From Antedon mediterranea (lineage: Eukaryota > Animalia > Echinodermata): a stretch of 64,000 nucleotides of DNA. The position numbers were made by a program, and so were the translations under genes. Of the stretch, positions 1,051 through 36,257 are shown piece after piece (positions within the stretch are counted from its first letter, which is position 1; each line of letters starts with the position of its first letter). The stretch spans positions 27,587,648 to 27,651,647 of the forward strand of contig NC_092673.1 of the NCBI RefSeq assembly GCF_964355755.1, read 5' to 3'. The notes under the pieces are model-generated. The model ran no database searches. It was given only the letters and a program-made list of their open reading frames with translations, and was not told where the DNA came from.

Positions 1051-1494
1051 TCTGAATCGAAACAGCCGAGCCTGCTGTAGCTGCTTATATAGCTGTGATG
1101 TGAACTAGGCTGGCTAGCCTGGCCAACAGCGACCGATTGTGGAGATACATTTTTAGTAACTCTTTTAAAAGTTGCTAGGACTGGGAAGGTTGGAATGATC
1201 CACGCCTCCCTACGAAATAGACCAACTTAAGAATATAAAATTGAACAGTTTTCTCACATCCTGTAATACATTATTATACTATAAATCATGAATTGTGGCT
1301 AATTCTTTAGGCCTACGATAGACAAAATAAAAAACGCACCGTAAAAACTAATCTGTAACCATGTGAATGACATAATCTAATACACGGCAATTGACGAGTT
1401 AATATTCCCAATATTGTGACAAATGTCTGTACCCTCGTGACAGGGTACAATATAACAGTACGGTAATCACTCTAGTAGGCTTAGGTATAACCTC

Positions 1495-5233: not shown

Positions 5234-7859
5234 TTAATGTTACTGTAAGGCCTACTTCTATTAAACTTCAATCTTAATTATTTAGTATCTGATATTTAAA
5301 GATTCTTGGTTGCAAATTCACAAAATCTACAAAGTGATGACCACACCCAATACTCCCTTTCATACTTGTCATGTTGTTTTGGATTTCGGTATTGTTCTTT
5401 TGTGGATTGTTTTTTTAAATACAGACCACAATATTTTGTGATTAATAAACAGCAGTTAACACCTTTGTACAGTACTGTCCAGCCTACAGTACAAAAACAC
5501 GTTTTAATTCTTAAAATAATGCCATCCCATTCCTAACAAAAATTTCCCATCCGTAACATTCACTAAATTTTGATAGTAATGTTTTTTATATTAAAAAAAA
5601 CTTGTTTAAATCTATTGCAATTGAAAAATTAAGAATTAAATAACAATTTTGGAGCCATTACTTCAATAAACACAAGTGAGGAAAAAACCTCAATCGAAAT
5701 GTCTCAGAAGTAACAATTATGAATTTTGAAATGCAAGTATGAAATTAATAAACAATAATAAAATACTGTACTTGATTATGAACAATTGGAGCTTACTGTG
5801 AAATAAAAAGTTAACTACAGTATATTTATGGGGAAAATGTTAACAAGATGCATGGTTTTATTAAATGAAAAGGATTTAAATGATATGTCCTGTCCTTAAC
5901 AAAAATGTCTGTCCCGTTCCTACAAAAAATGTCATCAATATATTTTTTGAAATACGATATGTTCACCAAAAGTTTCAAAATATTTGTTTATAATGTACTG
6001 CATATAGTTTTTAAAAGGAAAAAACAAAAATATTAAATTGTGGTATCAATACGTTAACTGAAATGTAAAAAACACCATAAAACTACTATTAAAATGTCGT
6101 GGATGGACAATTATGAATTTTGAAATGTATATATAAAATTTAATAAACAAAATATGTGTTATAAAATGCTTGAATATGTACAATATAGGGTCATAGTGTA
6201 ACTACGCAATTTTTGGTTAAAATAATTATCTGACGAGTAAAGAAAATTTCGCTGGCGGGGCCGGGAATTGCCAATTTGCCGACAAAATTGGTGTCATTAT
6301 CTGTACATACACCTGATCAATATAATGTTCTAGGATTGCATAGTCATATTGTCTTATATGGGATAACGATGCAAAATTAAAATCAAACCAACATTCTGTT
6401 ACTATGTTGTAGGCCTATTCATATTACAATAAAGAAAGAATTAGAAAAATCTGACTTGTTGTTTCGAAATATAGGGTCTAAAACATCGCCGAAAATGATC
6501 GTTTTTAGCGACGAAAGAAGTAAAACTATTTGCGGCCTCAGTCGACAATTCTATTAACTACGCCATTTTTGGTTAAAATAATTACATATAATTACGTTTT
6601 TTAGTCATTTATTTTATATATCACCATTGGAAATATCAATAAAACATGTTATTAAATGCTTATAAAATATATAAAGTTGTTTACTTAACGGAATTCGGGC
6701 AAATTCATTGCTCTAACTTTGTGTAGTAACGATCAGAGAGATTCATGGTACACGCGCGAGAGAGAAAACATTCCGCTGCGGGTGATTCGCGTCCACCAAT
6801 CAAATCAGCCAGAATCCAAAATCATTCAACCGTGAGCAATGCCAATCGCGAGAAAGCTCAGCTTTGATTGGCTTAAGATGACATCATATCACAAAATGGT
6901 GGTTTTGTAGTTAAGCCTCACGGAATATTCTGTTCCAAAAATGAAATACATGGATATTTTTTATGGTATGTGTGCTTTTTCTTCAAAATTTTTAATAATA
7001 AAAGCCTCATATCGAGAAAATATAATAAATATATCTTTAGACAAAAAAGCACATGGCATGTGGAACTATATAAATCTTAGCGTAGGAAGACATACAAATC
7101 CCAGGTCATGAGAGGCTCAACTGCAAAAACAAGATTGAATAGGGTAAGGTCAAATACTTTTGAGTAAATTTCAATCTACCGCGTACGGCCGTACGTACGT
7201 GCTAGGTAGTACGATATTTTGACCACATTTTTTACGTGTTTCGTTAGATGGAATGAAAATAAAAAATAGTTGTTCTGAAGGGATCAATGATATGATATGT
7301 AAATAAACAAACACTAAAAAGAATTATGTTTACAATTCAATTATTGTCAGAATAATAGTTTATTTTTTTCCCCGGCACCTTTGTTTGCTGACGGACGCGA
7401 TGATGTGCCGACGGACACAAAATCAGGGCCGGCCCGCCCCCCTCCCCTACTGGATACGCCACTGGTCAGCTTATACGCATGCGCAGAGAGAGGGATTTGG
7501 AAGAAAAATGAATACGCATGCCTATAAGCTCATGTTTTCAATTCGCGCGAACAAATTCGCCTAGTGGAAACTCGGCTTTAGTAGCAAATTAAAAGGTGTA
7601 ATGGTGGTTACATTCAATCCTGTAAAGAAATGATGTTAAACATATGACGTAATTTTTTGTCTTTTGTGAGATTCACTCACTTTTATTTCATTCTTTACAA
7701 TTGTTACAATAATCTATATCAATTTTGTTTCAGTAGAAAACTATCTCTGCAGCTTAAATTTTTTTTTTTCTTATTTTTAGTATTTTACATATATAAAAAG
7801 TTAAAGCATTTAAACAATAGACAAAAGTTATATAAAAGTATACATCACATAATATAGGT

Positions 7860-8650
7860 TCAGAATTGCCATTACAACATCACAAAATAAAATATACTAT
7901 AACTCATATAGCACCAGTAAATAAAACTAGTAAGGTATAAACCATACTAGAATACTAAGTATTGTGTCGTAATAATATTTTCTCGTGTTTTTAGCCTGTT
8001 ATTGTTTAACAATTATACATTTTTACATTGCTAAAATAATATTTTTTACCTTTTCCCATTTTTTTATGCTTTCCTCTCTTTTATACACTATATCACATTC
8101 CATTCTGAATAGAATTCCTTGTTTAAAAGATTTCCATAAATTAAAATAACTTTTATTTGTAACATCAGCCAGTATCTTTTGCTTATAAACCGTAAAAGCA
8201 GCAAATGTATATATAAAACCAGTAAGAATATTTCTTGTTCCAATTACCAGATTTTGAAAAGACATGTTTATATGATTGGTACCTTTTAAAACAATCTCTA
8301 TTTTTGTCCAAAAACCTTGAATAAATTTACAAGTAAAAAACATATGCTCATCATCTTGTACCTCTCCACATCTACCACATATATTAGTATCTTTTAGTTT
8401 CCAGATAGACAACCTTTTGTTTGTTGCTAAAATTCTATTTAACAGTTTGTAATTAAAGTGTATTAATTTTTTATCTTTCATTTTACAAACTTTAGATAAC
8501 CAACATGACTTCCAATCAATATTCAAATTATGAAAATATTTTTCCCATTTTCTTTGACAAACCGGCGGGACAAAAATTTCCTCCACAAAACAGAGATAAA
8601 TACTCTTTGTTGTGATGTCCTTATATCTATTCTTAATGACATATGACGTA
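7860..8650 (-). mobile_element. L1/Tx1-clade LINE ORF2 3' fragment (zf-RVT region)
   Basis: ORF 8023..8724 has KSIY...W...W...FNYKLLNRILATNKRL..W...CGRCGEVQDDEHMFFTC..W, the CCHC zinc-binding region following RT in L1/Tx1 elements. The N-terminal ~25 aa of the ORF is the antisense of the FMO pseudo-exon. Confidence 0.8.
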
Positions 8651-8690
8651 ATTGTTTGACTAATAAATTGATTTCTATTTTGTATAATAG

Positions 8691-8995
8691 TTACCCCCAG
8701 TCCCATACCAAGACGATTTAGCAAGTGACATTGGAGTGAAGCCTACACTCAGTTATTTTTAACGAATCCTAATCTTGCTGTGAAAGTGTTCTTTGAATTG
8801 AACCAGCATTACCCTTCGTCTTACAGGCTTAAAGGACCTCATCACTGGTCTGGTGTGAGACAAACTATCATGAGAAGCGAGAGAAGTACAAGCAAAACGA
8901 CAGGAATGGTTCATATAAACACACATATTATCCTATTTATTTATCTCTTTTCGTTTCTTTTGGTTCTAATAATTTTAATGAATTGTACTAAATAA
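8691..8995 (+). pseudogene. Degenerate terminal exon of an FMO paralog
   Basis: After an ag acceptor at 8689-8690 it reads LPPVPYQDDLASDIGVKP, then a frameshift, then LFLTNPNLAVKVFF..YPSSYRLKGPHHWSGVRQTIM and a hydrophobic tail. It is colinear with exon 6 of the intact FMO (ISHLPYQEELAGDIGARPSYALFLTDPKLAAKVFFGPAYPSSYRLQGPHQWPGARKAIM). Confidence 0.85.
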
Positions 8996-9682
8996 TTACA
9001 TTTTAAAATTCTAATGTTACGGTACTTAATGTTATGATGTGCATTATGATTGAAGTGGAACACGTCTTATCAATTTAGTATTTATCATTTTATGAATGAT
9101 TTATAACCAGATAAAATAAAGTATTTTTGCAGTTTTACAAAACATAATGCGTTCGTATCTTGTATCTATTGTGATCTATCCCGAATCTTCCATGCATTTT
9201 ACGTTTCTGATTATTCGTCTGTTATTCGGTACCTATAAGGCGATAGTTGTCTTTGACAGCTCTTGTCTCTCCTCAGTCCTCCCCATTGTAAGTATCACTG
9301 AAAGGAATATTTCATTTCATTTTTCATTTCTTTATTCGACAACAAGCGGTCCAGGGGTTGCGACAGCAACAGAGCGCCATAACACATTTGTGTCCGCAAC
9401 CCCTGTAACATACAACTTAATACAAGTTAAAAATGAATATAAAATATACAGAATATACAACAAATTTAATTAATTATATAAATATATCTAAAGTAATTCT
9501 GTAGCTTTGCCGCGCGCTATATTTCAAAAGCAATAGTATCGAAGGCATGCGCAGTATTGTTTTATTACAGTATGTTATTTAAATTATCAACACGGTACAC
9601 CTGAAGTCATGTTCACGGTTGACTGATTTTTTAAATATAATAAATATTCACCGGTGTGCGTTGTTAGTTTAAAGATCACAAA

Positions 9683-12600
9683 ATGGGTGAGAAGCGTATA
9701 GTCGTGATAGGGGCTGGAATAAGCGGTCTTGTAGCCATTAAATCATGCCTAGAAATGGGCTTTAAACCGTGCTGTTTTGAGAAGCAATCGTCCATTGGTA
9801 AGCTTGCCGTATCATACGTTTTGATACCTATTTTGATAGTGGGCTGTCTAGATTAGGCCTACTCAGTCAGGGAGGGGTGCTTATCCGGATGTCAAAGCTT
9901 TACTTATGGCCAAGAATTGTAGGCTATGCAATACGAGTCCAAGGATCATTTCATACAATAGGAATAAAAAAATACTGTTTTATTCTCTGTGATCATTGGC
10001 ATGTAAGATGAATATATGCCTAGGTTTTGGTTGTTCTGTATTCCACGATTGTATCACCGCGTACGTTTCATTTCGACTCAATAATGTCATGATAGGAAAC
10101 TACTGTACAATGATTGCAATTACCTTATTCTACTGTACAGACATAATCGGAACAATTATGCATTATCTCCTTTAGCTTTATGCATGTTTAAATTCGTAAA
10201 GCAAATCGCAATAATATATCGTGTGGTCAAAGAAAATTCTGCCTTTGCACGCCGCCATGTGTTGTCAGGGCAACTAGCAGGGTAACACAGGTGAGGTAGA
10301 AACGTGTCTTTATTATGGAAACAGCGTGCAATTGTTTATTATATTATCGTTTACCTTGGCGTACAGCGTAGCATATTTATACATTTTGCGGGTTGTGCTC
10401 ATGTATTTATTAAAATTAATGCGTTCAATAACATCTGGCTGCTTTTACGAAATTCCTATTTGTCTTCCAGAATAGTAATGGTTTGGTTTGTCATCTTTTT
10501 CAGGTGGAGTATGGGTCTACGATGAACATATCAACAGAGGAGAGGCTAGTGCCATGTACGATAACCTAGTAACCAATACCAGTAAAGAGATGATGTGTTT
10601 CAGCGACTTCTCATTTCCCGAAGATTATCCGCCATATTTACTTATTCATCACGTGATTAAATATCTACGCGATTACGCTAAACATTATGACTTAGAAAAG
10701 TACATATGTTTTGACACAGACGTCACGGGCGTCAAACCGGTAAGTGACAGTGCCATAGTTGGACAATGGAATGTAACAACCAGAAGCCTAGAAGGTCAGG
10801 CCGTCACGACGGTATTCGATGGTGTGATGGTTTGTACTGGAGTTCATTCTAATGTAATAATGCCAACGTTTCCCGGAATGGATGAGTTTAAAGGTCAGGT
10901 GGTGCACAGCAACGCTTTTAGAAAAGGAGAGACAGTTAGTGGAAAGAATGTTTTAGTTATTGGTAAGTTAGGGTATACATTTGATTTCTTGTCTTTATCT
11001 GATGAAATTATTACAGTTTTGTCATCAGCCACGTCCACAGTGATTATTTAAGATACTATATTGATGACTGTAATGCTCTGTCTACACTATCAAACTTTAT
11101 GTGACAAAACATGTGATGTGACCATATATGGACATGATTGTCATATCACTACCGTATTTGGGCATATCACGGGTGTCACGAAACCTAAGACCACGAAAGC
11201 TAAGACCCCTAAGACCTAAGATCACGAAAGTTAAGACCCAAGACCTAAGATTACAAATATTTATCTTTCGCACCTGCCTTGTATTTTAACATTTATTCTG
11301 AATACCACACCTTAGAATTGGCACTTTCATGAAAAAGAATCACATAAAAAGTAACAAATACATTTTTAAATTGATGATTTTACAGACGTTTTTCTCGCAC
11401 ACAAAATGACTAGCCTACAGTACAGTAGGCCTACCCCATGTTCAATGTTTTTGTTTCTATGGAACGTCAAAAGAGCAAACATTATATAGAGGGCTGAAAA
11501 CTCTGTGGAGTCCATCTACAGTGTGGATGGAACAATGTAAAATTAAAATTGTAATGATAATAGTATAATCATGCAAGTACGAAGAAATAAATACTTGCAA
11601 ATAAATTTTAATTTAAAAATCATGATAAGTTTTTTTTTGTTTCGTTTTCTTTCTGTTTTTATACTTGTACTATTATTGTTGCTCTTTTGGCGCTCCATAG
11701 AAACAAAAACATTGAGCATGGGGAGCTCGAGGAGTTACATTACAGTATACAAAGAAACACATCTGTAAAATCATCAATTTAAAGGATTTATTTATTTGTT
11801 ATGTGTTTCTCCTTCTGAAAGTACTTATAAGTCCTAATTTTAAAGTGTGGTGTTCAGGATAAAGTTAGTCAACAAATTTGGAGTCAAAATACAAGAAAGG
11901 CAGGTGCGTAAGAAAAACATCCTCTGAACCAACACAATGGAGTAAATATATACCAACAAACAACCCGTCAAGTTTGTTTGCTGTAAAGAAAAAATATACA
12001 TTTACTCAACGGGCGAAAATAATGTGAGTTTATCTATGTTTTGCGGTAGTATTAAATTATATTTATGGTAATAAATTAAACCTACTGTGTTTAAAATTAT
12101 GTATGGATAAACAAGTATTGTTTTTAAGCTGTAGTATATCTTAGTATTTGTAATCTTAGGTGTTGGGTCTTAGGTTTCGTGACACCCGGCATATCACTAC
12201 CATATTTAGGAACTTAACAAACTAGTTTGATAGTGTAGACAGAGCTTAAGTTTATTTGTTTTCTTTTACTTTACAGTTATTATGGAGACTTCCCAATGAA
12301 CATTCATTCTAGTTGCATTGCGTTTGAACTACAGTGTATGTGTCATTTTATTCTCATCGTTGCATTAAAATATTTTATATAGATATTTTTAAATTTATTT
12401 GTAGGTGCGTCTCATTCGGCAGGCGATATATCAACCCAGTGTAGCTACTATGCAAACATGGTATGTATTAATTTTTTCATATTGTATATAAACACAGTGA
12501 CTCACCGTGTTCTTATTTTCAGCACTAATAGCTCGTACTGTCTTTGCAAACGTTACGTAAAAGCCAACTCAGACAGCGTTGTACGAGGCCCGACGAGGAG

Positions 12601-14479
12601 TCGTCTCGTCGGCAGAAAATTAAACATGTTTAAAGTTCTCTCGAAGCTTAAAACCCATGCCACGTCTGGATTCAACAGCAGTGAAGAGTCAAGACGGCTT
12701 GTCAGACCTCGTCGTAGTACGACGCGGTCTGAGTTGGCCTTAGGCCTAATTCGATGGAAATAATCATATTTTTTATAATTTTGTTGAAAATGTGACCGTT
12801 TGTGGTATATTGCATTCACTGCCTTAAAATCGCTTCATTCTCTGTGTCATTTCTCAGACATATATCTGTATGCGTAGCGGTTGTTACCTACTTTCTAGAC
12901 GAGGTCCTAAGGGACAACCGCTCGACTCCTTAGTAAGCCGAGGCACATTACACGTACCGGAATGTATACAAGCAATGGTAATCCAACGAATGTTTGAATC
13001 TAGAGCAGACTTTGACAGTCTCGGTGTCCGATCAACCAAATCGATTTTTACTGCATCTAAAATTATGTGCGACACATTTCCGGATCGGATCATGAACGGA
13101 ACGATTAAAGTTAAGGATAACGTTAAGATGTTTACGAAGACTTGTGTAAAATTTGTAGATGGAACATACATTGACAACATTGACATCGTAATCTGTGCCA
13201 CTGGATATCGCACTACTTTTCCATTCCTCGATCCTGATATTTTTGACGGTAATTTTAATAATTATCCGGTATTTTTGGATAGGCCTACTTTTTGAATAAA
13301 CAGTAACACGTGCAATGTTAAAGACAGTTGTCCTATTTGGAACACGACACATTGTATTTATTTATTTCAACAATATATCGTTGATCATTAGGAACAATAC
13401 CTTATGACAAGACATAAACATGAAAAAATTAAAATAGACATCATAACCGTCTACAGTAATGCTTATTTAGTGAGTACCACAACTGCTGTTTTGGCAATTT
13501 TTAAAGTATCCACTTTTTTGATATGATACAGCCAGCAGTCATTGAATGATTTAAAATAATGCTACTATCACATCAATTACTGTAATAGTTTTTTAGGTTC
13601 ATTTATGCGTCTGAAGATTGAAACAAGTGGAGAGGAGGCTCCTCTACTCCCCACCCCATGAGCTACTTGCTTACCTATTGCAACTGCATCACTATAATAA
13701 GTATATTACTGTTTGTATTGCAGACACTAGGTTTGAGCTGTATAAGCATATTCTATCTCCTAAGTACCCTACTCTTGCGTTCATCGGCATTATTAGTGTG
13801 TTAGGAGGAGCTACATCACCGGTGGCTGAGCTGCAAGCCCGCTGGGCCACTTCCGTCTTTTCCGGCAACTTGCGAATTCCAGAGTTACCGACTCGACAAC
13901 GTGATGCCAAACATCGAATTGATTCTCTTATCAAAAGGCATGGCTTCCTAAAATTAGCTGTAAGTAGGTGTATATATTATAATACAGTTATATTGTTTAA
14001 AATATAGCCTACTGTACAGTACTGTGACATGCTATTGAAGATGAGAATTTTATAAAAAAATAAACAGTTATGATGCAATTGCAAATAGTTTATTTCAACA
14101 ATATTGCTAATGTTACTCCTTTTACGGCATTAATTAATCATATACATGACGTTTATTTTAGATTTCACACTTACCATACCAGGAAGAATTAGCCGGTGAT
14201 ATTGGTGCTAGGCCCAGCTATGCGCTGTTTTTGACCGACCCAAAGCTTGCTGCTAAGGTGTTCTTTGGACCGGCATACCCTTCGTCGTACAGACTTCAGG
14301 GACCACACCAATGGCCTGGGGCGAGAAAAGCTATCATGAATGCATGGGAAAATACAGTAAATCCAACAAAAACAAGGCAACTTGATGTGCAAAATCACGC
14401 ATCCATATTCAAACCACTTCTCGTGGTCACCGTTTCTTTTTTGATTATGTTTATAGTATATTATATTAGCAATTTCTAA
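9683..14479 (+). CDS. fmo: Flavin-containing monooxygenase (FMO family, class B flavoprotein monooxygenase), 6 exons, ~524 aa
   Basis: Exons 9683-9797, 10504-10962, 12405-12460, 12858-13248, 13724-13959, 14162-14479 all have GT-AG junctions with consistent phase (1575 nt). Motifs: FAD site VIGAGISG, GGVW, TNTSKEMMCFSDF, FMO signature FKGQVVHSNAF, NADPH site GASHSAGD, CATGY, AELQARW and a C-terminal membrane anchor. Confidence 0.95.
11075..12246. mobile_element. Harbinger/PIF-like MITE (gctctgtctacactatcaaact family) in FMO intron 2, split by a nested element
   Basis: TIRs gctctgtctacactatcaaact / agtttgatagtgtagacagagc with TAA flanks; same family as six other copies in the window. Confidence 0.8.
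11171..12187. mobile_element. Foldback/Mutator-like non-autonomous element
   Basis: Termini gggtgtcacgaaacctaagacc / ggtcttaggtttcgtgacaccc; 10-bp direct repeat ggcatatcac on both sides; subterminal (taagacc)n repeats; long internal imperfect inverted repeats. Confidence 0.75.
12561..12740. mobile_element. Small MITE in FMO intron 3
   Basis: Inverted termini aagccaactcagacagcgt / acgcggtctgagttggcct. Confidence 0.6.
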
Positions 14480-14807
14480 AACATATTGAGACTTTTTTAT
14501 TACATGGAACGCTACAGAATTTATATATTTCTATAATTGTTTATTTTTATATTATCAAATTCCTAAAAACCGTTAACAGTTCGTCATTCCATGGAGGTAC
14601 CTCCATGGTCATTCAGTCTTTGTGTATTAATAATCTGCATATTTTAAAAACACCTTTGGATTTTAAATTTATAAAATGGATAGATTGATATTGATCAACT
14701 TTACTTTACTGTGACACTGAAATCGGTTTTTATCCAATTCAGAGCGTTAAGTACTTTAAATGCACGTTTCACGTGACGGGTTCATATTTAATATTTACAA
14801 TCCGTTA

Positions 14808-14940
14808 AGCTTCGGTCCTCCTAGGACGTAAGCGCAACATAACACAAGTAGTTGGACCAATCACGACACGATGTATCACCATCTATCGCATCGTGAGTGG
14901 TCAAATTATTTGTGTCGCGTCCTACTGACCACTCTTAAAT
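14808..14940. mobile_element. Palindromic MITE-like repeat with paired CCAAT motifs (related copies at ~26074-26195 and ~27050-27130)
   Basis: Shared core ttgaccaatcacg...gtgattggtcaa in inverted arrangement at three sites. Confidence 0.55.
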
Positions 14941-15759
14941 CTAAATGCCACACAACGTATTTACCGTAATAATGGCTAAATATGGCGTCTGCAATACCTG
15001 GATGAAACAGCATTCACAATGCCTTTGTAATGTTTTGCACGTAAATCCGGTTATCTGATCAGAGAGGGTTTCTTTATTTCCATCAAACACAAGAAACATC
15101 AAACAAACATCAATTAGGCAAGTAGAAATTTGAGATTAGGTACAGATTAATTACTTCTGAATTATATTAATTCTGTAGTCTGCTAAATTGGAGTATTCCC
15201 ATTTCACATTATCTACCTCAAATTACATTAATGGCAATATTAAAACAAAGTGTATGCATTCATAGTTATATTAAAGAGTGTATCGCTTTGTGCACTTTCA
15301 TTGTGTTATTGTATTTCATAGTTTTCCATCAGAAAAATTTAGAAAAAAAGCACGGTCATGGTGATGTACTATTGCCAGATTTTGTTTAGATTTCTTAAAA
15401 GGTTAAAAGTAATTTATTAAATTGCTTTTGAAATTAGTTTAGTACGACCTATATTATCATTGTTCCAATTGTAACGGAAGGTTCTTCATGTACGGTAGTC
15501 TTCGAGGAAAGAAAATCTCGAATGACTAAATACAAGGAAGACAGAATGAATGTTTCAAGTTGCATAGGCACTGTATTTGTTGGTTTATTTGTTATAAATA
15601 AAGCTCTACAATTATCGTTAGTTTACTTGTTCTTTATTCGTTGTGTACATGTGCTCTTACTATAACATGGAATCATGGGATGTCCCAAAGGTAGACTACA
15701 GATGGCACCAGAACTATTAAGATGATCATCAACAGGCCCTGCATCACCTATTGATGAAA

Positions 15760-16156
15760 TTGTCTTTTTTGATGTTTTTTATTCGGCATTTGTTGCTGTT
15801 GAAAATGTGTTTGTGGCTGTTATAATCGCGTGCACCCTTAGGTTATGGAAAAAACAAAATATTTTTATTTGTTCGTTAGCATTGTCTGACAAAATCTGTT
15901 CGTCTTACTTTTATGCGTATGAATTCGCAAATGTACGCATTTCAACACGATAAATTAGGGTTACAAACGCTTTAATGCGGCATAGGAACCACGTCTGTTC
16001 TAACGCTAGGCTCTATTGCCATTGACCGAGCCATCGCTCTTGTATGGGCACCATTTAATTATGACTTTATCGTCACAGTTAAACGCTGTATTATCGTGTG
16101 CGCTTTGATATGGACAATCCCATCTTTGTTGTATGCCGCAATAGTTGTGACTTAAT
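15760..16156 (+). pseudogene. Class A (rhodopsin-like) GPCR pseudogene fragment, TM1-TM4
   Basis: Reads SAFVAVENVFVAVIIAC..LWKKQNIFICSLALSD (TM1 N, TM2 LAxxD), then a stop and frameshift, then SVLTLGSIAIDRAIALVWAPFNYDFIVTVKRCIIVCALIWTIP (DRY-like motif, TM4 W). It terminates shortly after. Confidence 0.75.
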
Positions 16157-17019
16157 ATTAGTAAGAAGATAAATATTTTGGCACATGGCGTTTCATACGT
16201 ATAGGCCTACTATTTTGAGATTCAAACTGTATTTCGGGCCCGATTTCAGGTTCAGACAAACATCGAAAAGCCTCGAAATAACTACAGACTTAGAGCAAGT
16301 CTATGGATGGTACTGTATGCCCGATATACTTTCAAGAATTCATACGAAGATCATGATTGGGATTATTTATATAAGATAATGTAACACTCTGACCATCAGG
16401 TCAACAACCCCTTTTCACTATTTCTCCCTACTCCATCTATTAACATTCCTAGTGGTTTCTTCCTATCCCTAGGTACTCTTTGTTCACTATCCTATAACCC
16501 ACATCCTTAATCAATTACTGTTTCCTCATCATCATGGAATGTTCCCTTTACTAAATAGTCCCTTCCCAGTACATGCATATTAATTAGGACCATTCCTTAA
16601 ATATGAATGTATACTGGTAAGAAAAAGAAGAGAAAGAAAAGAGAGCTTGATAGAATAAAACGTTTATAAATAGAGAAGAAAACGTATGTGATATAGCCAG
16701 AACAGACTGTATTGTATTTAGTATTGAAATAAAACTGTATCTGGACAAAACCATAATTACTGTTTGTACATTCTGTGACTGTGTGAAATCCTGCCGCTGA
16801 GACTATATGATATAGTAACGGATACACTAAAATACCACCGTTACAATAATATAAGATATACAATTATTTATTTGCGTTTTTAATTAAAATGTAGGCCTAA
16901 CCTGTCACATTAAAATGTGTAATACTAATATAATGTGTCCATTGTAACTGGAGCTATTATTAATATAATTGTACACATGTATTTTATAATAAACAGTTAA
17001 CAAAAAAAACAGTAGAATA

Positions 17020-17344
17020 TCTAATATGGTCTTGCGAGAAAACTTCTAAATTGTGGGACGATGTGTTTGATTGGTTCAGGAAATTAGACATCCGTTTTAA
17101 AATAGATTATATAGACATATGCTTTGGTATTTTTGAATACAAATTTACAATTTTATTAACATGTTTTTTACTTCTTACTAAGAGATATATATATATATAT
17201 ATAAGTGCAAGATTTATAAAAGTCCTCTTAACTTCAATCACGTTAAGGACTGGGTACTTTTTACAGAAACTGTGGAGAATAATATTGCAAAAAATAGAAA
17301 TAAGTATAATGTACAGTCCATATCAAAAAAGTATTGTAAACTAA
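17020..17344 (+). mobile_element. Degenerate L1/Tx1-like LINE 3' remnant
   Basis: CEKTSKLWDDVFDWF...ICFGI...LLLTKRYIY resembles the post-zf-RVT C-terminus of L1/Tx1 ORF2; it is frameshifted at a (TA)n tract. Confidence 0.55.
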
Positions 17345-18219
17345 ATTAAGGAATAAGAGTTGAAAATGCAAAACTTGGTAATCGTTACTGACAAGGGGTT
17401 ATTATAGCCTGGTTTAACTTAAGAAATGATTATGATGAGGATTTGTGGTATATCAAACATTGAAAGAGATAATGAAAAAAGAGAATGACGATTGAGATAA
17501 TGTGACGTCCTCAAACGTCTTTGGTTTTTCTTTTTGTTTCGTTCTGTTAAGTGTAATGTTTTTTTTTTGATAAAAGGAGAAAAAAAATTAAAGTTTTTGA
17601 AAAAAAAAACAACAAAAAACAGTGGATACACTAAAAAACGAAGCATTTCTTTTCGGTCATTTGTATTTTTATTTTAACTCTCAACAACTAAACATTGTTA
17701 ATAAATAAATATTAATTATATAATTTACCTTTAATAATAAATAGTATATTCATGCTTTAACCCTTCCTAAAATCTAATTTGATTACAAAACACAATACTA
17801 AACACATGCATGCATTATCATGTACATTATCTAGAGTTTGTGTATGATAAGCATAGTTAATGGCTTAGCCTTAGTTAAGTTACCCGCTAAGTTGGCTTAA
17901 TTGACGAATATTAACGCTAACTTTGCTGGCTGAGTAACCAACAACTTACCTGGTTGCAACTAACCCTTACTTGCATTGAATCACAAACATTTTTTAGTCA
18001 CTTTATAACTGTTTAGAGCGTCTCTCTTGGATTCATTTTACCGAAATTTCATACCATTTCTAAACATTTTCATGTATGATTAAACAACATTTTTACATTT
18101 TAGTAAATTATACCGCAATCATTCGGTACTACTTCGCAATTTTCACCAGTTCTCTTCGTTTTGTGTTGTTTATTTAGACTATGTGTTTTTTAAACACCAT
18201 TAATGTTTTTTTAGCTAAC

Positions 18220-21200
18220 TTACTGTGGTAGTGGCAACACCGTTTCATTGTTTAAAGACTTTTCTAGCAAAAGCTTAGTGGTTATACCTCCTAAGATATC
18301 AAGTTGTGAAACAACAACATTTAATTCTTTACTAGCCCATGTAACCATTTCGACTGCCATCAGTGAGTCGACTCCGTAGTTGATCATGGGCTGGTTGATG
18401 TCAATAGTTCCCGCGTCGACGCACAACAACGCACCCAATTTCTGCTTAACGCGCTGTTCTACATCTTCTAAGCTTAGTGTACAGTCGGTCTTTGAAATGT
18501 TGTCGCTAGCAGCCATGTGTTTGTACTTCATGTTTTCTTTGTAGCTGAACATTTGTGTTGCTCCCCAATCCTACAATTACAGAAAAAAAGACATAAATTA
18601 CGATTAGGCATACAGACAAAATATGAACATTTTATAAATGAAAAGGAATGTTAAAGGAGAAATTTAAAAGTCGGCATAATAACGTACAGTAGACTATCAT
18701 CAAAACGCTGTGATTATTTTCTATCATAAATTATTTAAAAAAGCTGTAATAGTGGATTAATATAACTTACCTGATTGGCAAGGCAGACGACAGCTGGAGA
18801 ACTTGTTGATTGGAAAAGTGATCCAAATACTTCTAGATATTCGTCGATATGAAGAGAGTGATGTCCCTTTAATGCCAGACTGTGTGTGACCTCAGCTCGG
18901 TTTTCGAGAAATCCTGCACCTCTAACGGGTCCAATCTGAGCACTGATTGCAGGCAGACCGCTAACTCTTCGTTTTTCAGCGAGTGAATCAAGGTATGTGT
19001 TTGCTGTAATGTACATTGGTTGAGATGCATGACCCCATGTAGCTGTTACAGATGATAAAGTGAAGAATACATCTAAGTCGCAGTCTTTAGTGTAAGCATC
19101 CAGAAGCTTGGCACTGGTTGCTTTTGAATCAAGAATTTTATCGGTTTCTTCGTATGTAAGAGATTGAAGTGACTCATCGGCGATGTATCCGGCTAAATGT
19201 AATACACCTTTAATGGCTGGAGCTCTTTTCACTTTTAGATCTTCAAACATTTTTTTAATGTGCTCTGATTTACTAACATCAGCTGCGAATTGGTATACTG
19301 TGACTCCTTTCTTTTGAAGGTACTGAACGGCCCGTCGTCCAGCTGCGTTGCGACATCCACGACGAGACACAATTGCAAGATGCTTAGCACCTTTGTCTGC
19401 CATCCAGCGGCACATTGCAAGACCAATTCCACCAAATCCGCCAGTGATGATGTAAGTTGCATTGTCCTTGAAGATTGTAGAAGATTTGTTTACTCTGGGA
19501 GGTTGCATGTTTTCTGGGATGTTGAAAATCATCTTTCCAATATGTGAGCCTTTGGCTGTTCTGGCAATTACTTCTGGGTAATTTTCAATAGATGACACTT
19601 CAAATGTAACCGGTTTCAAGGAGTTATTTTCAAATAGTTTAGATACTTTCTGTAAAAGAATTCTTGCTTTTGGTTTTTGAAGATCCAGCATGAAATCGAT
19701 TTGACAAGAGAGGAATGATTTATTCTCAAGAAGAAGTTGCATCTCAAGATCCGCATTCTTCAATATGTCACGTTTACCAATTTCACAGAAACGACCACCA
19801 GGAGCAAGGCACTTGATACCCTTAGTCAGCAGATCACCACCAAGAGAATTCAACACAACATCGACACCCTTTCCATCTGTCCACTTCATTACGTCATCAT
19901 AGAATGCATCTGATCGTGAATCCGAGACATATTGAATGTCATGTTTTTCTTTGAGATATTGGCGTTTCTTTTGAGTTCCGGCTGTACACATTATCTTTGC
20001 ACCAACCATCTTTGCAACTTGAATAGCACTCAATCCAACACCTCCACAAGCTGAATGTATTAAGACTGTTTCACCTTCTTGTAGATTAGCACGCTCAACG
20101 AGGCTGTGATACGAGGTAGCAAACACGATGGCGATACCAGCACTTTCATCCCATGATAGATTTGATGGTTTGGCGACGACAAGATTAGCATCGCAAACAA
20201 CGTGTGAGGCAAAGCAATGATCACCAAATCCAACAACCTCTTCACCTTCTTTAATGTGCGTCACTCCTTTTCCAACCTTCTCAACAATACCACTCATTTC
20301 AAGACCAAACTTTCTGCCGCCTTCTGATACCAATTCCTCAAGCATACCAAGTGCCATCATCACATCCTTAAAGTTCAATGCTGTACTCTTGACACGGACT
20401 ACTACTTTACCCTCTGCTGGTGGTGGCAATTGAGGTGTATATGAAACTCCTAAATCATCCAAAGACGCGAGTCCGCCGTCCTGTGTTAGCTGCCAATATG
20501 GTGTTTTGACATCAACAGCATCATTCTTGATCTGTAATTTTGCAAGTCTTGGGTACAGATATGTGTCGTTACGGATTACAATTTCTCTTTCTCCCTCTGG
20601 CTTATTAATAATATACTTCATTACGAGTGCAGCCTGAACTAGTGGTGCGTTATTTGGATCGGCATCGATAGAGAATATGGGAGTTTCAGATTGATTAGTG
20701 ACTGCTCTAAACAAGCCAACAGCTTTACTAGCCTCAACGTTAACACTGTCTTTGTTTCCTCCTGCTGTTACAAGCCAAACTCTGCTGAAACTTGCTGGAT
20801 TTTCATCAATGTGTTGAAGGAATTTGAGAAGTGAGTGGCAGTTGCTATCAGACTCACTCCATACATAAACAATCTCTTGAGGTTCATCAGTCGAACGTTT
20901 CATGACAGTGGCTAATGATTCGGATGTACAACTAGATGTTTTCTGGATGGCCTTTGATAGTTTTGTCTCCCGATCACATATCAACGTGTATTTTTGTTGA
21001 GTGGGTTTAATCTGCCCGGTTTTGAAGGATGGTTTTCTGGCAAGGTACATGCTGTGGAAAAACTCTCCAGATGTTGTAGCGGTTTGTACATCTACAAATC
21101 CGTTGTCGATCATGCAGTCTGCCCATTGCTTCTTCGAGAGCCAGCAGTTGCTTGTTCTGAAATCATCGTAAACCCAGCAGAGGTCAAGAGATCCAAAGAC

Positions 21201-24200
21201 AAGTTCAGAAATGAAGTGTGTGTTGGTAGCCTCGTACATCAGGAATAAACCGTCATCGCAAAGAAGATCCTTTACTCGAGACAGTGTATCATTGATGTCA
21301 ACAACTGAGTGAATTGTATCCATACATACAATAAGGTCTACGGTGCCAGGTGCAAATCCTTGTTCAACCAGATCTTTTTCAATGTCCAGTTGTTGGTATT
21401 TAACAAATGGGTAGTCAGCAAGTGTACTCTCAGCATGCATGAAAAAGGTGACACTAAGGTCAGTGAAAATGTACTCAAGACGACGGTCATCTCCAAGTTG
21501 TTTTAGTGGTTCCAAGACGTATTGTGCCAATCCACCCATTCTTCCACCGATCTCTAAGACTCGTACAACCTGTTTCTTTTCAGCTGCCATTTGAACAGCT
21601 TTGTTGATTACTTCTGTTCCGGTTTTGTAAAAAAGCCTTGTAGTTATGGAGTCAATAAAGTAGCTTGGAAGACACTCTGGTCTGAAGAGAAGTTTCACTG
21701 CACTACCTGGGTTTACCAATGTCGTAGTAAAGTTGTCACCCAGACCTCTGATCATTCCTAACTCATGTTTCATCTCTGGAACTTGTTCGTCGAGTTCGTT
21801 CAGCTTCTTTTGGATCATCTCATAAGACAATGGATTGGATGTGTTAGCAGCAACATTGTTCAGGCAATTTAGATAACGAGGGTGAACAGCATATTGCTTT
21901 GGATCAACGGTGTTCAATCCATGACAAATATACGATGTACAAACTTTCTTAATATCATCTACATATTTCTCAACCTTTGCGATACTTTTCATTTCATCAG
22001 GATAACGTGATTGTAGGTTCTTTTCGTCGAACACTTGGTTTAGGATTGATGTATCGTTCATGCAAGATTCAAATGGTTGCCAAACTGTTTCATACAGACA
22101 GTCATCGATGTTTACGTCGGTCTTGACGCCGTCGATTGTCTTGAATTCAACTTCGTAAAGGTTGACTAATACATCTCCACTTTTTGAAACAATTGTAATA
22201 TCCCCTGTCATCGTTTTACTATCGCATTCATTAACTTTAGCGTATGCAAGAACCTCTTCGAATGGTTGGAGTTTAGGCACTCGCATTCTGATGCTCTTGA
22301 TTCCAACGGGCAGGTAAAGAGTTGTTGTATCACCAACCGCACGTAGTAGAAGTTGAAAACATCCATCTAGTTGAACTGTTTGTATGCGTTGTTTATTATC
22401 TTCTGGTGCGATCAAGGTTCCAATAACTTCGCCGTCACCAACGCAAACGTCAGAAACAACCTGGAAAGAGGGGCCATAGTTAAGACCAAGTGATGTAAAG
22501 CTGCTATAAAATTCGTCCTTATCTTGACGCTGAGAACATCTAGCTGAAACGGCATCTATGTCGAAAGGTTCCACTTTTGTCTCTGTAATGGATCGTGGGA
22601 TTACACTTTCACTGAAGATAAGTTTATCGGATGAAATCTCAACACGGTTGCCAGCCTTGGTACAGTTCAACTCAATGTAAGGTGATCCATCAACGCTTGA
22701 ATCGTTCCATGTGCACACACGTTTAAATGATACATTATCCAGATTTGGGCACTCATCTGCTTTGAAGAATGACTGTAGCGCATACTCTACATAACCGGCG
22801 GCCGGGAAGACTACCTTATCTTTCACTACGTGATCAGCAAGGAATGGGAATGAGTTAAGAGATAGTTTGCCAAGTTGACCTCTGTATGTTGGGTCATCAA
22901 TACCAAGACGCTTCTTGTAGGTATGTTCTGGTTCTTTCCAGAATGATGAGTGTTGCCATGGGTATTTTGGTACATCCACCCATTTACCATCGCCGTTGGT
23001 GATATTATTCCAATCCAAGGTTACTCCATTGATGTATAGTTGCCCAAGTGCGTTAAGTGCAGCCATTCTGTCATCATCGTTTCGTTTTCCTGTTGCTACC
23101 GTAACGATATCAGTTTTCCCTTGATCTTTTGCGGTTTGTTTGACGGAAGAAATGAGTGTATTAGAAGCAGCACATTCAATGAAGACATTGGCATCAACAT
23201 CTTGAATAACATTCTTAAGAGCAGACTCAAACTTGACAGTGCTTCTGATGTTTTTCCACCAGTACTCGGTACCAAAATCACCATCATAGATTTCACCAGT
23301 CAAAGTAGAATAGAATTTGACGTTGCGGGTTCCTGCTGGTGTGATAACAGCTCCTCTCATCGAGGCACGGTATGGCTTCTCCATAGGATCCATGTAAGGT
23401 GTGTGGAAAGCACATTGCACACGGAGTTGTTTAGCTTTGATGTTCTTATCATTGACTACAGCTAATATACTTTCTTCAGATCCTGCCAGTGTTAGTGAAC
23501 CAGGTGCGTTTTCAGCAGCTATGTACAAATCGTTGTATTTTGAGCAAACCTCTTCTGCTTCAGCTGTTGTTAAGCGAACGGCAACCATGCTACCTGCACC
23601 CTTGAGACGTGCTTGATTTTTGCTTCTGTAATAGATGACTTTGACAGTTTCTTCTAAGGTTAATCCTCCACTGGCGTATGCAGCAGCAACTTCTCCAAGA
23701 CTGTGTCCAACAACTACATCAGGTTTCAATCCCCAACTGCGCCATAATTCATATAAACCTATCTGCAGGAAGCATATAGCAGGCTGGCTAATTTCCATAT
23801 CGTTGATATTTTCCTCGTTGACCATATTTGCACCTGTGTTACCATTGAACAATCCCTTAGATTTGACCAGCGACCATCCGCTAACTTTACAGAATATGTC
23901 ATCGCAGGTGTTGATAACGTTTCGGAATGTTGGTTCTGTTTTGTAGAGTTGTCTTCCCATATTCACCCATTGCTGTCCTTGTCCTGGGAAAACGAAGCAA
24001 ACTTTATGTGATGGGTTATATGTTGTTCCAGACCATATTCCCTCTCCGTTTTCATTTGTGGTGAACTTTGTCAGTCTTTCTCTGAATTCCTCTCCTGAAG
24101 ATGCGATGACAGCAAGTCGGTTTTCGTGGTGCTTTCTGCGAGTTGATTGCCAACCGATGGCGTGTGTGGCGTCTTCAGATGTTTCAAATTCCATCCATTT

Positions 24201-26314
24201 TGTTGCTACATCTTCTAGTGCTTTAGATGACTTTCCAGATAGTGGGACTAACACAGGTTTGCCCTTGGTCTTGTCATTACCAAACGACCACCCAACTGGT
24301 TCTTGTGCAGCTTTATCTTCTGTCTCTGGTGCTTCCTGTAGAATAGCATGAGCCAATGCTCCAGCAAAGCCAAAACTGTTAACACCAATTATTCTCTTCC
24401 CTGTACGTGGGAGTGGTTCAACCTCAGTCTGTACTTTCAGCTTCCAGTCGTCTAAATGAATGTGTGGATTTGCTGTTGTGTAGTTGATGTTTGGTACTAA
24501 TGATCCTTTGTTTAGCATCAGTGCTGCTTTTATTGTAGCAACAGCTCCTGCAGCACATTCACTGTGACCAAAGTTTCCCTTGACGGATCCAATCCTCAGA
24601 GGCTCTTTACGATGAGAACTGAATGCTCTTCCGATAGCTTCTGCTTCAATTGGGTCTCCAACTGGTGTACCAGTACCATGAGCTTCAAGGTAATTCACAT
24701 CAGCCATGTTGATACCAAATCGTTTGTATGTTTTTTCCATCGTGTGTTGTTGTGCTACCATCGAGGGCATAGTAAGACTCTGACTGTAACCGTTGGCGGC
24801 AATTGATATTCCGACGATAGAAGCATAGACGTGATCATTATCTTTAAGTGCTTGGTCTAAGGGTTTAAGAATCATAGTACCCCATCCTTCCCCTCTCACG
24901 TAACCTTTGGCTGAGGCAGAAAATGGACAGCTTTTTCCATCTGGTGAAAGTACGCCAAGTGCACTGAAGGCAACAGATGTTTCTGGAATAATTAAAGCAT
25001 TGGCACCAGCAAGTACGGCAACATCACATTCCTTCCTTTGAAGAGCGGAGCAGGCGAGCTGCATAGCAGTCATGGAAGATGCACAAGCGGTGTCTACAGC
25101 AAAGCTAGGCCCCTTCAGGTTAAAAGCGTATGATATCCTGTTTGCGGCCACGCTATGTGCAGCACCCGTCAACATGTAGGCGTTGATCGTTGAAGTATGA
25201 CACGTCTGTATACTGTAGTCCATCAGTCCAATGCCAACGTACACACCACACGTAGACTTCAATTCATCGGGAACAATTCCGGCATCTTCAAAGGCTTCGT
25301 GGGTAACCTCTAGTAAAATTCTCTGCTGGGGATCCATCGATGATGCCTCTTTTGGTGAAATCTTGAAGAATGTGTTATCGAACTGGTCAATTCCATCGAT
25401 GAATGCACTTCGCCTGCACACCATCTTGCCTTGTTTGGTTTGGTCACTATCGTGGAAGGTGTCGAGTGACCAACGGTCAGATGGGATCTCAGTTACGCAA
25501 TCTCTGCCATTTCGAAGGACCTCCCAGAAGTCATCTGGTGATGTCACACCGCCAGGCATTCTACATCCTGTAGTAGATTCAATATTTAAAACATTTAAAA
25601 TGCTGTTTACAGTTAAGAATCCGTTGTTAATTATAGTTCAGTTTATTGCATATATTCATTATAGCAAATGCTGGTTGGCGCAAATTAGAAGGAAATACAA
25701 AATTATTCATGTAAGTTATACAGTATCTAAGCCAGTGTCGACAAATATTGGATTGACAGATAAGTAAGGTATGGGTATACAAGCCAGAGTTCTTGAACGA
25801 AATAAATGAATTAAATTGAAATAGGCACAACATAATTTGTAACTGTAAAATCACTTAATGTTCTATAGACGACGATTTGGTTTAATATTCCTAAAGCTCT
25901 GTCTACACTATCAAACTAGATTGACAAAAAGTGTAATATGCCCATATATAAGCACATCACATTTTATGTCACATAAAGTTTGATAGTGTAGACAGAACTA
26001 ACAAAAACATTTGTATTAGTACTTGCTTATTTATTTTTAAAAAGAATTATTGTATAAAAAGTAATTTTTCTAAAGCTTGGTTCCCACTTGGTAAAGTAAT
26101 TTGACCAATCACGACGCGATGGATCACCCGAACTGTCGCATGTGATTGGTCAACTTACTTGGTTATGCCTAGTCGTTGCGTTTTGGGAACCAATATTAAC
26201 GAGTAGATGCCCTCTAAATAGGAGTTCTATAAATTAGTAATAAAATATCTGTAACTTACCCATGCCAACAATGGCGACTGGGCGAAAGTAATCGTTTCCA
26301 TTTCCAATATCCAT
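18220..26314 (-). CDS. pks1: Iterative type I polyketide synthase (animal PKS, echinoderm pigment PKS1-like; KS-AT-DH-cMT-ER-KR-ACP), 3 exons, ~2400 aa
   Basis: Exons 26314-26260 (MDIGNGNDYFRPVAIVGMG), 25567-18771 and 18570-18220 have GT-AG junctions in phase. KS: DTACASS, EAHGTGT, KGNFGHSE. AT: FPGQGQQW, GHSLG, AFHT. DH: LADHVVKDKVVFPAAG. MT-like: LEIGGRMGG. ER: LIHSACGGVG. KR: YIITGGFGGIG, GHASQPMYITAN. ACP: YGVDSLMAVE. No TE. The gene symbol is assigned by architecture only. Confidence 0.93.
25894..25998. mobile_element. Harbinger/PIF-like MITE copy in PKS intron 1
   Basis: agctctgtctacactatcaaact ... agtttgatagtgtagacaga. Confidence 0.8.
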
Positions 26315-27655: not shown

Positions 27656-28492
27656 CTTAGGTAGCCTATAAAAGGTTATTACTTTATTAATTACGGTACT
27701 ACCGTACCAGCATATGCAAACTGTCAGAAGTTAAGACGTTTCTTGTTTTGTGTGGTTCATTTTGCGTACTTAAAACAACAGTTATGACTACCAGCACATC
27801 TATTATACATACTTAGTTATGTATATTTACATACTTATTTTTACCTGTGTACATTTGCATTATACATAATATAACAATCCTATACACTATAAATAAATCC
27901 TAGAATAATATGATTAAGTATATTGCCTGTTCGGTACTAATTGATTAATTAATTAATTCCTTAGTTGCTGGTTTTACTAGTAAACAATCGTTCAATGTGT
28001 ATACTTGTTTACTTATGGTATATCTATATACCTATCATGTAGTCAAATGAAATCATCATTTTAGAGAATTCTGAACATAAAATGGTAATCATTACTAATA
28101 CAAATCAATTGGTTGCTTGTATAGTAAATATTTGCTTATTTTTTTCTTATTTTTCTTACCTAGATGATTGATTGATTGATTGATTCTTTTATTTTTTCAC
28201 ACAACATTCATAAAAATATAAATAAAAAATTAAGTACAATAAAGTGTGAAAAACAGGGTAACCACAAGCAAGCAAAGCTTTTAATCTGTGGCACCCTAAC
28301 TTAAAATATAAATTTACAAATATATTACAAAAATGTTTTCATGTAGTAAATAAATGAACGAAAATACAACGTACTATAATATAATATATACTGGTGCGCG
28401 TCCGTACAACTGAGGACTAGTGCTGTTCCGCCGTACCACGCCGAGAATGTTAGAGAGTCGCTATCCAATCAAGTTCGAACAATACCATGAAA

Positions 28493-28564
28493 GCCCCAGT
28501 GGTCTAATGGTTAGGACATCTGCATATCAAGCAGGCGGTCCGAATTCGAGTCTCGGTTGGGGCG
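28493..28564 (+). tRNA. tRNA-Asp-like sequence, anticodon ATC (probably repeat-borne pseudo-tRNA), copy 1
   Basis: Cloverleaf: GCCCCAG/TTGGGGC acceptor, GTC-TAATGGTTAG-GAC D arm, TCTGC-ATATCAA-GCAGG anticodon arm, CCGAA-TTCGAGT-CTCGG T arm (1 mismatch), followed by a T-run. Confidence 0.55.
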
Positions 28565-28862
28565 ACTTTTTCTCATTCTCACAGATTTCCTCATCTTTAT
28601 CGTTTCAAATTAATTAATTAAATTTCAGTATATCACCGGGCGGTTTAGAATTAATGTTCTGTGCCTGATTTGTTTAGGCCTATATATATAAAAGTATCTC
28701 TTCTGAGATCCCGCCTCGTGAATAAAAATACTGTAAGATGAGGGCGTATCAATTTGATCTCTGGTGCGCGTGCGTACAACTGAGGACTAGTGCTGTTCCG
28801 CCGTACCACGCCGAGAATGTTAAAGAGTCGCTATCCAATCGAGTTCGAACAATACCATGAAA

Positions 28863-28934
28863 GTCCCAGTGGTCTAATGGTTAGGACATCTGCATATCAA
28901 GCAGGCGGTCCGAGTTCGAGTCTCGGTTGGGGCG
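28863..28934 (+). tRNA. tRNA-Asp-like sequence, anticodon ATC (probably repeat-borne pseudo-tRNA), copy 2
   Basis: Same cloverleaf with a perfect T arm CCGAG-TTCGAGT-CTCGG and one extra G-U pair in the acceptor stem. Confidence 0.55.
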
Positions 28935-29041
28935 ACTTTTTCTCATTCTCACATATTTCCTCATCTTTATCGTTTCAAATTAATTAATTAAATTTCAGTA
29001 TATCACCGGGCGGTTTAGAATTAATGTTCTGTGCCTGATTT

Positions 29042-29072
<31 letters not shown>

Positions 29073-36150: not shown

Positions 36151-36257
36151 TGTTGTATCGTAGTTAGCTGTTTCGTTTAACGTTGTGCAGTGGCCCCTAT
36201 CATTTGAGGCCCCTGTCCGTTTTTTGACCACCTGCACGCTGACTGTGAGTGGCCGCC

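Follow-up and report, generated by a model that had tools for sequence, protein, structure and literature searches.

A convergent pair of polyketide synthase and flavin monooxygenase genes in the crinoid Antedon mediterranea, a candidate biosynthetic locus

Introduction

Do a polyketide synthase (PKS) gene and a flavin-containing monooxygenase (FMO) gene that lie tail-to-tail in the genome of the comatulid crinoid Antedon mediterranea serve one biosynthetic pathway, and what kind of product would such a pathway yield? The two genes lie in a stretch of 64,000 nucleotides (contig NC_092673.1, positions 27,587,648 to 27,651,647; hereafter the window), for which an initial annotation had proposed a compact PKS-FMO locus for an aromatic polyketide pigment or defence metabolite, a naphthoquinone or, in a crinoid, a compound of the anthraquinone or naphthopyrone type. 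Here we describe two complete, spliced and adjacent genes, a PKS of the Pks1 family that keeps all its reductive motifs and an FMO from the clade that holds the sea urchin pigment FMOs Fmo3 and Fmo2. Our tentative reading, with a probability of roughly 0.4, is that their products act in one pathway to a quinone-type pigment.

Results

The two genes are complete, convergent and spliced

Splice-site modelling gives an FMO gene of six exons at 9683-14479 on the plus strand (524 amino acids) and a PKS gene of three exons at 26314-18220 on the minus strand (2400 amino acids), with GT-AG borders at all introns and no internal stops in either. The stop codons, at 14479 and 18220, leave a gap of 3740 bp, which confirms the converging arrangement of intact genes, about 3.7 kb apart, that had been read from the letters. 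The models match database proteins P0121 (FMO) and P0001 (PKS) at 100%; both are catalogued as Antedon mediterranea, so that the supposition of a crinoid host was also right. The features of the pair and the two remnants beside it are as follows.

9683..9797 (+), FMO coding exon 1: start codon and FAD-binding GAGISG; gene model, identical to P0121
10504..10962 (+), FMO exon 2: active-site T-N and the FMO motif FKGQVVHSNAF; gene model, spliced contig
12405..12460 (+), FMO exon 3: variant NADP-binding motif GASHSAGD; gene model, 56-letter piece in the spliced contig
12858..13248 (+), FMO exon 4: gene model, spliced contig
13724..13959 (+), FMO exon 5: gene model, spliced contig
14162..14479 (+), FMO exon 6, coding part: predicted C-terminal membrane helix (amino acids 502-523), then TAA; gene model, spliced contig
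14480..15601 (+), FMO 3' untranslated region: reach of the spliced X1 contig, which does not fix the true end; AATAAA near the contig end
17727..18219 (-), PKS 3' untranslated region: reach of the spliced X1 contig
18220..18570 (-), PKS exon 3: ACP (Ser2353) and stop; gene model, spliced contig
18771..25567 (-), PKS exon 2: KS (Cys180, GLMD at Leu133), AT (Ser641), DH (His931), pseudo-MT, ER (HSACGGVG), KR (TGGFGGIG; Lys2167, Ser2191, Tyr2204, Asn2208)
26260..26314 (-), PKS coding exon 1: start codon; gene model, identical to P0001
15726..16152 (+), remnant of a broken rhodopsin-type G-protein-coupled receptor (GPCR): translation interrupted by stops and frameshifts; two Pfam 7tm_1 matches (E 6e-04 and 1e-06)
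8691..8980 (+), last exon of an FMO paralogue, surviving as a frameshifted remnant: tblastn in two frames; blastn, 125/172 nt identical to exon 6; Pfam FMO-like, E 4e-09

A single 2713-nt contig of run X1 links FMO exons 2, 4, 5 and 6 at the predicted junctions and includes a 56-letter piece equal to exon 3, and a single 7781-nt contig of the same run links PKS exons 2 and 3; the run is taken as RNA-like solely because its contigs skip predicted introns, and its tissue is unrecorded. Contigs of a second run, X2, by contrast read straight on into the introns. Since both genes are found as spliced contigs in X1, they are transcribed in one library, a joint presence that bears on neither cell type nor level of expression. 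The X1 contigs of the two genes end about 2.1 kb apart (15601 and 17727).

As the initial annotation had stated, no intact gene lies between the pair: just 2 of the 16 open reading frames (ORFs) of at least 52 amino acids in the gap match Pfam, and both are pieces of the one broken GPCR. The decayed second FMO copy that it placed upstream is present, but only as a single frameshifted last exon; tblastn with five FMOs found no further FMO exon in positions 1-8690. Because this remnant scores better against FMOs of the crinoid Anneissia japonica than against the adjoining gene, we regard it as an old paralogue and not a recent copy. The LINE-like remnant that abuts it (8026-8742, minus strand) may have cut off the rest of that paralogue. 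The intact biosynthetic genes at the locus are thus two only: a Pfam scan of 107 ORFs in the window (93 of at least 52 amino acids in four gene-poor stretches and 14 longer ones elsewhere), from which short exons would escape, gave no sulfotransferase, P450, methyltransferase or transporter as further tailoring genes. A comparison of the DNA upstream of the two genes brought out no shared stretch.

The PKS is of the Pks1 family and retains its reductive motifs

Pfam gives the PKS the order KS-AT-DH-MT-ER-KR-ACP and no match to a thioesterase (TE). Its MT region is a pseudo-MT with the motif LEIGGRMGG, as in SpPks1-like sequences, and its chain-length motif, GIGLMDY, has with Leu133 the GLMD form of crinoids. 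The same form is found in CrPKS, the characterised pigment synthase of A. japonica, which is 58% identical to the window PKS overall and has, in the available text of its description, the layout KS-AT-DH-pseudoMT-ER-KR-ACP without TE (Li, Lin and Schmidt, 2024; PMC11414698). The two enzymes differ in their reductive domains. All seven motif checks across KR, DH and ER are intact in the window PKS, and its KR has Tyr2204, which aligns with the tyrosine of solved KR domains, together with the Lys, the Ser, the Asn and GGFGGIG; in SpPks1 and CrPKS, the two PKSs proven to make pigment, the histidine of DH, the dinucleotide motifs of both ER and KR, and the tyrosine of KR are all broken.

The pattern of conservation agrees with this difference. 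Compared with its A. japonica orthologue, P0002, the window PKS is 76% identical in KS, 70% in KR, 79% in ER and 66% in DH, and since KR and ER are about as conserved as KS, the reductive domains appear to be working ones; compared with CrPKS, where these domains are dead, identity is 51% in KR and 55% in ER against 70% in KS. In the available text of the CrPKS paper, aromatic products are tied to an inactive KR (PMC11414698). Since its KR, DH and ER motifs are intact, unlike those of SpPks1 and CrPKS, there is no support for reading the window PKS as a plain quinone synthase of the non-reducing type, and the assignment to an aromatic pigment in the initial annotation is to that extent unsupported as it was stated.

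Relatives of the PKS were drawn from the best 120 of 3264 matches. Among the 47 family members examined, 39 pass all reductive checks, six are broken in DH, ER and KR (CrPKS, the four named urchin Pks1 and one further urchin-clade protein), and two are gapped or truncated models; all the complete sea-star, hemichordate and amphioxus PKSs examined keep the full set. In a KS-AT tree of 18 of these 47 rows, the window PKS pairs with P0002 (100/100) inside a crinoid clade that also contains CrPKS (100/100) and that lies among echinoderm Pks1 homologues, which bears out the assignment to the Pks1 family. Approximately unbiased (AU) tests reject both the pairing of the window PKS with CrPKS (p 6e-06) and a single clade of all broken PKSs (p 5e-47), and from these sequences the loss of the DH, ER and KR motifs appears to be separate in urchin Pks1 and in CrPKS. 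CrPKS is here P0005 (XP_033103353), so taken because its Leu130 and Phe2209 match the numbering of the CrPKS paper.

A second PKS of A. mediterranea, P0006, lies on the same 36,192,472-bp chromosome as the window genes, is the orthologue of A. japonica P0003 and also has intact reductive motifs. As both PKSs retrieved from A. mediterranea among the best 120 of 3264 matches are of the intact type, no non-reducing PKS is seen in this species within that set. In A. japonica, two scaffolds of 626 kb and 565 kb carry seven or more genes of the Pks1 family (among P0002-P0008, P0192 and P0193), of which CrPKS alone is reductively dead and alone is characterised. P0008 and P0193, on different scaffolds, are more than 90% identical, and for this reason the two scaffolds may be one array or haplotypes.

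An intact and conserved set of KR, DH and ER motifs is what would be expected if the pair made a reduced, non-aromatic polyketide, such as a polyene or a lipid-like defence or signal compound, which the FMO would oxygenate and which would be no quinone pigment. The occurrence of this set in 39 of the 47 PKSs makes it the ancestral state, which need not be tied to quinones, and the separate origin of the dead state in urchin Pks1 and CrPKS fits as well. The GLMD motif and the close kinship with CrPKS, which reaches 70% identity in KS, argue for an aromatic product instead, and so does the genetic evidence available for this FMO clade, all of which concerns quinone pigments. We consider a non-aromatic product quite improbable, though well short of negligible.

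The FMO groups with FMOs of the sea urchin pigment system

The window FMO has the class B motifs GAGISG and FKGQVVHSNAF and the equivalent of Asn61 by sequence check, and its predicted structure (pLDDT 83.7) gives TM-scores of 0.87-0.88 with ancestral mammalian FMOs. It shares the fold and the C-terminal membrane helix with the vertebrate microsomal enzymes (AncFMO5, 6SEK; AncFMO3-6, 6SE3; 38-41% identity) but differs from them in the NADP motif, GASHSAG in place of GIGNSGG, and in a shortened SQRH loop. Baeyer-Villiger activity in FMO5 is enabled by I60, H275 and H426, according to the available text of the source (PMC9950137). The window FMO has T, K and a gap at these positions (0/3), and the missing signature residues speak against a Baeyer-Villiger role.

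In a tree of 25 rows, in which two long rows of an earlier tree were left out, the window FMO falls in a clade of 18 (echinoderm, hemichordate and two further rows) that has a GASHSAG-type motif and a support of 100/100. The seven rows outside are vertebrate-like, brachiopod (lophotrochozoan) and cnidarian and include P0181, a second FMO of A. japonica. A link to the urchin genes is given by published quantitative PCR primers: both Sp-fmo3 primers fit clade members P0212, P0213, P0318 and P0319 with 0 mismatches and the right spacing, one Sp-fmo2 primer fits P0218 and one Sp-fmo5 primer fits P0253, these two also being clade members; Sp-fmo5-1 and fmo2-2 are not among the retrieved FMO proteins. 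In the available text of PMC7455242, fmo3, fmo5-1, fmo2-2 and fmo2 are the clade-1 FMOs of the pigment system, pigment cells express fmo2 and fmo3, and fmo5 is not specific to these cells. Loss of Fmo3 results in albino larvae, less spinochrome B and shifted spinochrome ratios, as given in the available text of PMC7005274. An origin of the window FMO in the general xenobiotic clade, named beforehand as a result that would speak against a pigment role, is thus not what the tree gives, as the enzyme lies with Fmo3 and Fmo2.

Within the clade, the crinoid branch forms a polytomy with the fmo3, fmo2, fmo5, asteroid and hemichordate branches. Pairwise identities of the window FMO lie at 46-47% with orthologues of Fmo3, at 45-46% with Fmo2 and at 41-43% with Fmo5-like proteins. 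An AU test in which the crinoid FMOs are forced together with the vertebrate-like rows does not reject this placement (p 0.38), a value that shows merely that the crinoid branch has no fixed place within its clade. The tree sets the window FMO apart from the vertebrate-like rows and ties it to fmo3 and the other pigment FMOs at the level of the clade, not down to one-to-one orthology. The NADP motifs of P0296, P0331, P0341, P0346 and P0352, which are a gastropod FMO and further representatives, are likewise HSAG-like or NSAG-like. The clade may not be strictly ambulacrarian, since a long-branched gastropod FMO grouped inside it in the first and wider tree, built by a quick method, and the HSAG/NSAG motif clade may not be confined to echinoderms and hemichordates.

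Linkage of Pks1-family and clade FMO genes recurs in other species

We scored co-location as a clade FMO and a Pks1-family gene on sequences of identical size within one species, which shows a shared sequence and not a distance. By this measure, a clade FMO lies on a Pks1-family sequence in 8 of the 9 other species scored. Four further genera, Saccoglossus with no more than an FMO and Patiria, Asterias and Amphiura with no more than a PKS, fall outside the scoring. In A. japonica, one of three clade FMOs (P0126, 59% identical to the window FMO) is on the 626,149-bp scaffold that holds three PKSs, including the orthologue P0002, and the vertebrate-like P0181 is on another sequence. The single clade FMO retrieved from A. 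planci is on a 3.75-Mb scaffold with three of the four retrieved PKSs. Among urchins, the pks1 sequence carries one of two clade FMOs in S. purpuratus (fmo2, on a 35.9-Mb scaffold), two of two located cluster members in L. variegatus and three of three in L. pictus, and one of two in D. setosum (the fmo3 orthologue). P. flava and G. talaboti each have their one clade FMO (1/1) on a Pks1-family sequence. The tightest bounds outside the window are 626 kb (A. japonica) and 3.75 Mb (A. planci). Linkage thus recurs in a second crinoid and in most of the species scored, but it is absent in Diadema antillarum, and tight adjacency is documented for the window alone.

Two proxies for distance were discarded: the spacing of RefSeq accessions, because the adjacent window genes themselves differ by 1142 numbers, and the closeness of the SPU numbers of pks1 (002895) and fmo2 (002963), which is not usable as evidence. 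Metagenome scans were uninformative: with P0001, 0 relatives were found among 23 pattern matches, and with the FMO alignment 68 loci were found, only 11 of them at least 9 kb long and none with a PKS match or an HSAG motif.

The repeat-rich surroundings, with LINE, DIRS-like and Gypsy elements and the GPCR remnant, would suit a recent chance juxtaposition in the Antedon lineage. We hold this very improbable, as the orthologous PKS and a close FMO homologue share one 626-kb scaffold in A. japonica and linkage at some scale exists in the eight species above. By a rough estimate from genome sizes, chance would give the A. japonica co-location with a probability of 0.4-0.6% over the whole genome and of 9-13% if both genes are confined to one chromosome; the corresponding values for A. 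planci are about 2% and 41%.

Discussion

A possible two-enzyme pathway to a quinone-type pigment

We propose a shared pathway for the PKS and the adjoining FMO. The PKS product would be an aromatic polyketide that carries a saturated side chain, and hydroxylation by the FMO would turn this compound into a quinone-type pigment; this is the reading to which the probability of about 0.4 applies. The observed starting point is two intact, spliced and adjacent genes, and a PKS in which the catalytic motifs of KS, AT, ACP, KR, DH and ER are present and presumably active, without a thioesterase. The PKS might fully reduce just the first cycle or two, giving a butyryl-type start, and then extend the chain unreduced to at least 14 carbons, as the crinoid GLMD motif would suggest, with release by cyclisation in place of a thioesterase. 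Alternatively, it might pass the reduced starter to a non-reducing partner. The membrane-anchored FMO would use NADPH and O2 to form a C4a-hydroperoxyflavin and place oxygen onto the electron-rich ring, Baeyer-Villiger cleavage being the less likely reaction. The pair itself may be the remainder of an old tandem array of PKS and FMO genes, kept together in comatulid crinoids.

Three considerations favour this pathway: the GLMD motif together with the kinship with CrPKS; the fact that, for this FMO clade, genetic evidence exists solely on PKS pigments; and the possibility that live KR, DH and ER domains make or supply the butyryl-type unit that CrPKS needs. Crinoid pigments bear saturated side chains, and CrPKS accepts butyryl-CoA and gives their precursors only if butyryl- or ethylmalonyl-CoA is supplied, as reported in the available text of PMC11414698.

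Several observations weigh against the proposed pathway. No echinoderm PKS with intact KR, DH and ER was found reported, in mainly open-access literature, to make an aromatic product, and our search returned no usable report on the pigment chemistry of A. mediterranea. No exact match to a consensus octamer of the GCM type occurs near either gene. The FMO clade includes Sp-Fmo5, which is not specific to pigment cells, and the crinoid branch sits in a polytomy. The linkage itself is irregular: the other two of the three clade FMOs of A. japonica are on a 100-kb scaffold without a retrieved PKS, CrPKS lies on the other PKS scaffold, on which no FMO was retrieved, none of the six clade FMOs of D. 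antillarum is on its two pks1 contigs (237 kb and 5.0 Mb), and in six of the eight species the linkage is of chromosome scale only, as ordinary macrosynteny would give. Under conserved macrosynteny, these six linkages count as one ancestral event.

The points on linkage are those expected if the two genes were simply kept on one ancestral chromosome segment, with the FMO acting on what another PKS makes or on unrelated compounds. Outside crinoids the co-location is indeed of chromosome scale or of 3.75 Mb, the linked FMO paralogue varies between urchins (S. purpuratus has fmo2 linked, D. setosum the fmo3 orthologue), no FMO was retrieved on the scaffold of the crinoid PKS that is proven to make pigment, and neighbouring genes common to two comatulids need no functional reason. 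An old linkage of this kind does less well with the 3.7-kb gap and the older FMO remnant alongside it, with the low genome-wide probability of the A. japonica co-location, and with the linked FMO being drawn from the sole clade genetically tied to PKS pigments and not from the general one; we regard it as somewhat unlikely. The shared-sequence data are consistent with close spacing of the two genes in comatulids and wider spacing in urchins.

Relation to known systems

Fungal partially reducing PKSs, and pairs of highly reducing and non-reducing PKSs, put a reduced starter on an aromatic polyketide. The likeness to the proposed pathway is one of logic only (programmed early reduction, aromatic cyclisation and flavin oxygenation by the product of a neighbouring gene), as the fungal enzymes belong to another PKS lineage and the window PKS has neither a product-template nor a TE domain.

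The urchin system of Pks1 and clade-1 FMOs, as described in the available texts (PMC7455242, PMC7005274), is built from the same PKS family, the window PKS being 46% identical to SpPks1, and from FMOs of the same clade as the window FMO, which have the NADP motif G-x-x-H-S-A-G in common with it; identity of the window FMO to the orthologues of Fmo3 and Fmo2 is 45-47%. It differs in that urchin Pks1 is reductively dead and has GMMD where the window PKS is intact and has GLMD, and in that the Antedon pair is 3.7 kb apart where in urchins the genes lie on a common chromosome, and in D. antillarum on different contigs. CrPKS is the nearer relative by clade, but the orthologue of the window PKS is P0002 and not CrPKS.

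The animal clusters or bundles named in the available text of Kim et al. (2026; PMC12833800) are the soft-coral terpene, bursatellin-oxazinin and sponge oroidin loci; nematode hybrids that join a PKS to a nonribosomal peptide synthetase (NRPS) and mollusc FAS-like PKSs are listed there as not clustered with modifying genes. The named loci resemble the Antedon pair in bringing scaffold and tailoring genes of animal origin together, but they concern terpene, NRPS or alkaloid pathways with tested enzymes, and the Antedon locus, a PKS with one oxygenase, is known from its genes alone. No earlier report of PKS-FMO linkage was found in a search of mainly open-access literature.

Other features of the window

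Outside the pair, the window holds retroelements and a laminin-like gene:

618-1226 (-), 8026-8742 (-) and 16964-17341 (+), LINE-like reverse transcriptase tail remnants
1497-2863, tandem array of about 94-bp units with about 71% match to their own reverse complement
28391-29060, 300-bp direct duplication (97%) upstream of the PKS gene, with a further partial copy at 63291-63392
33700-37620 (-), retroelement in pieces with reverse transcriptase and tyrosine-recombinase-like ORFs, which we take to be DIRS/Ngaro-like
38564-43796, Gypsy-type long terminal repeat (LTR) retrotransposon with 411-bp LTRs 99% identical and gag and pol in several frames
49000-64000 (+), laminin-like gene with Laminin N-terminal, EGF and Laminin B domains, running off the window

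One short high-copy repeat family occurs in the introns of the FMO and PKS genes (11065-11170, 12188-12256 and 25884-25999) and in the laminin gene. Contigs of run X1 cover much of the gene-poor 216-8642, two of them skipping 646 and 1615 bases, and may be non-coding transcript, repeats or alleles.

Implications

In its widest form, the proposal would make this the first animal polyketide cluster that includes its own tailoring enzyme. The PKS-FMO locus would go back more than 500 million years to ambulacrarian ancestors and would have stayed compact in crinoids and become looser in urchins; its PKS, programming itself, would provide crinoid quinone pigments with their saturated side chains, and the FMO would carry out the ring oxygenation so far reconstituted for no echinoderm pigment. 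We think this full picture unlikely.

Within narrower bounds, the pair is a useful and testable lead, because a 2024 paper reports that echinoderm pigment genes are not clustered, and with a single candidate FMO at 3.7 kb from the PKS, the two enzymes to be expressed together are clearly designated. If the enzymes work together, they would represent a new variant of animal biosynthetic clustering. The family tree suggests two separate origins, one in urchins and one in crinoids, of non-reducing pigment synthases from enzymes with intact reductive domains, and the pair points to the large majority of Pks1 homologues in echinoderms and hemichordates, those whose reductive domains are intact (39 of the 47 family PKSs examined).

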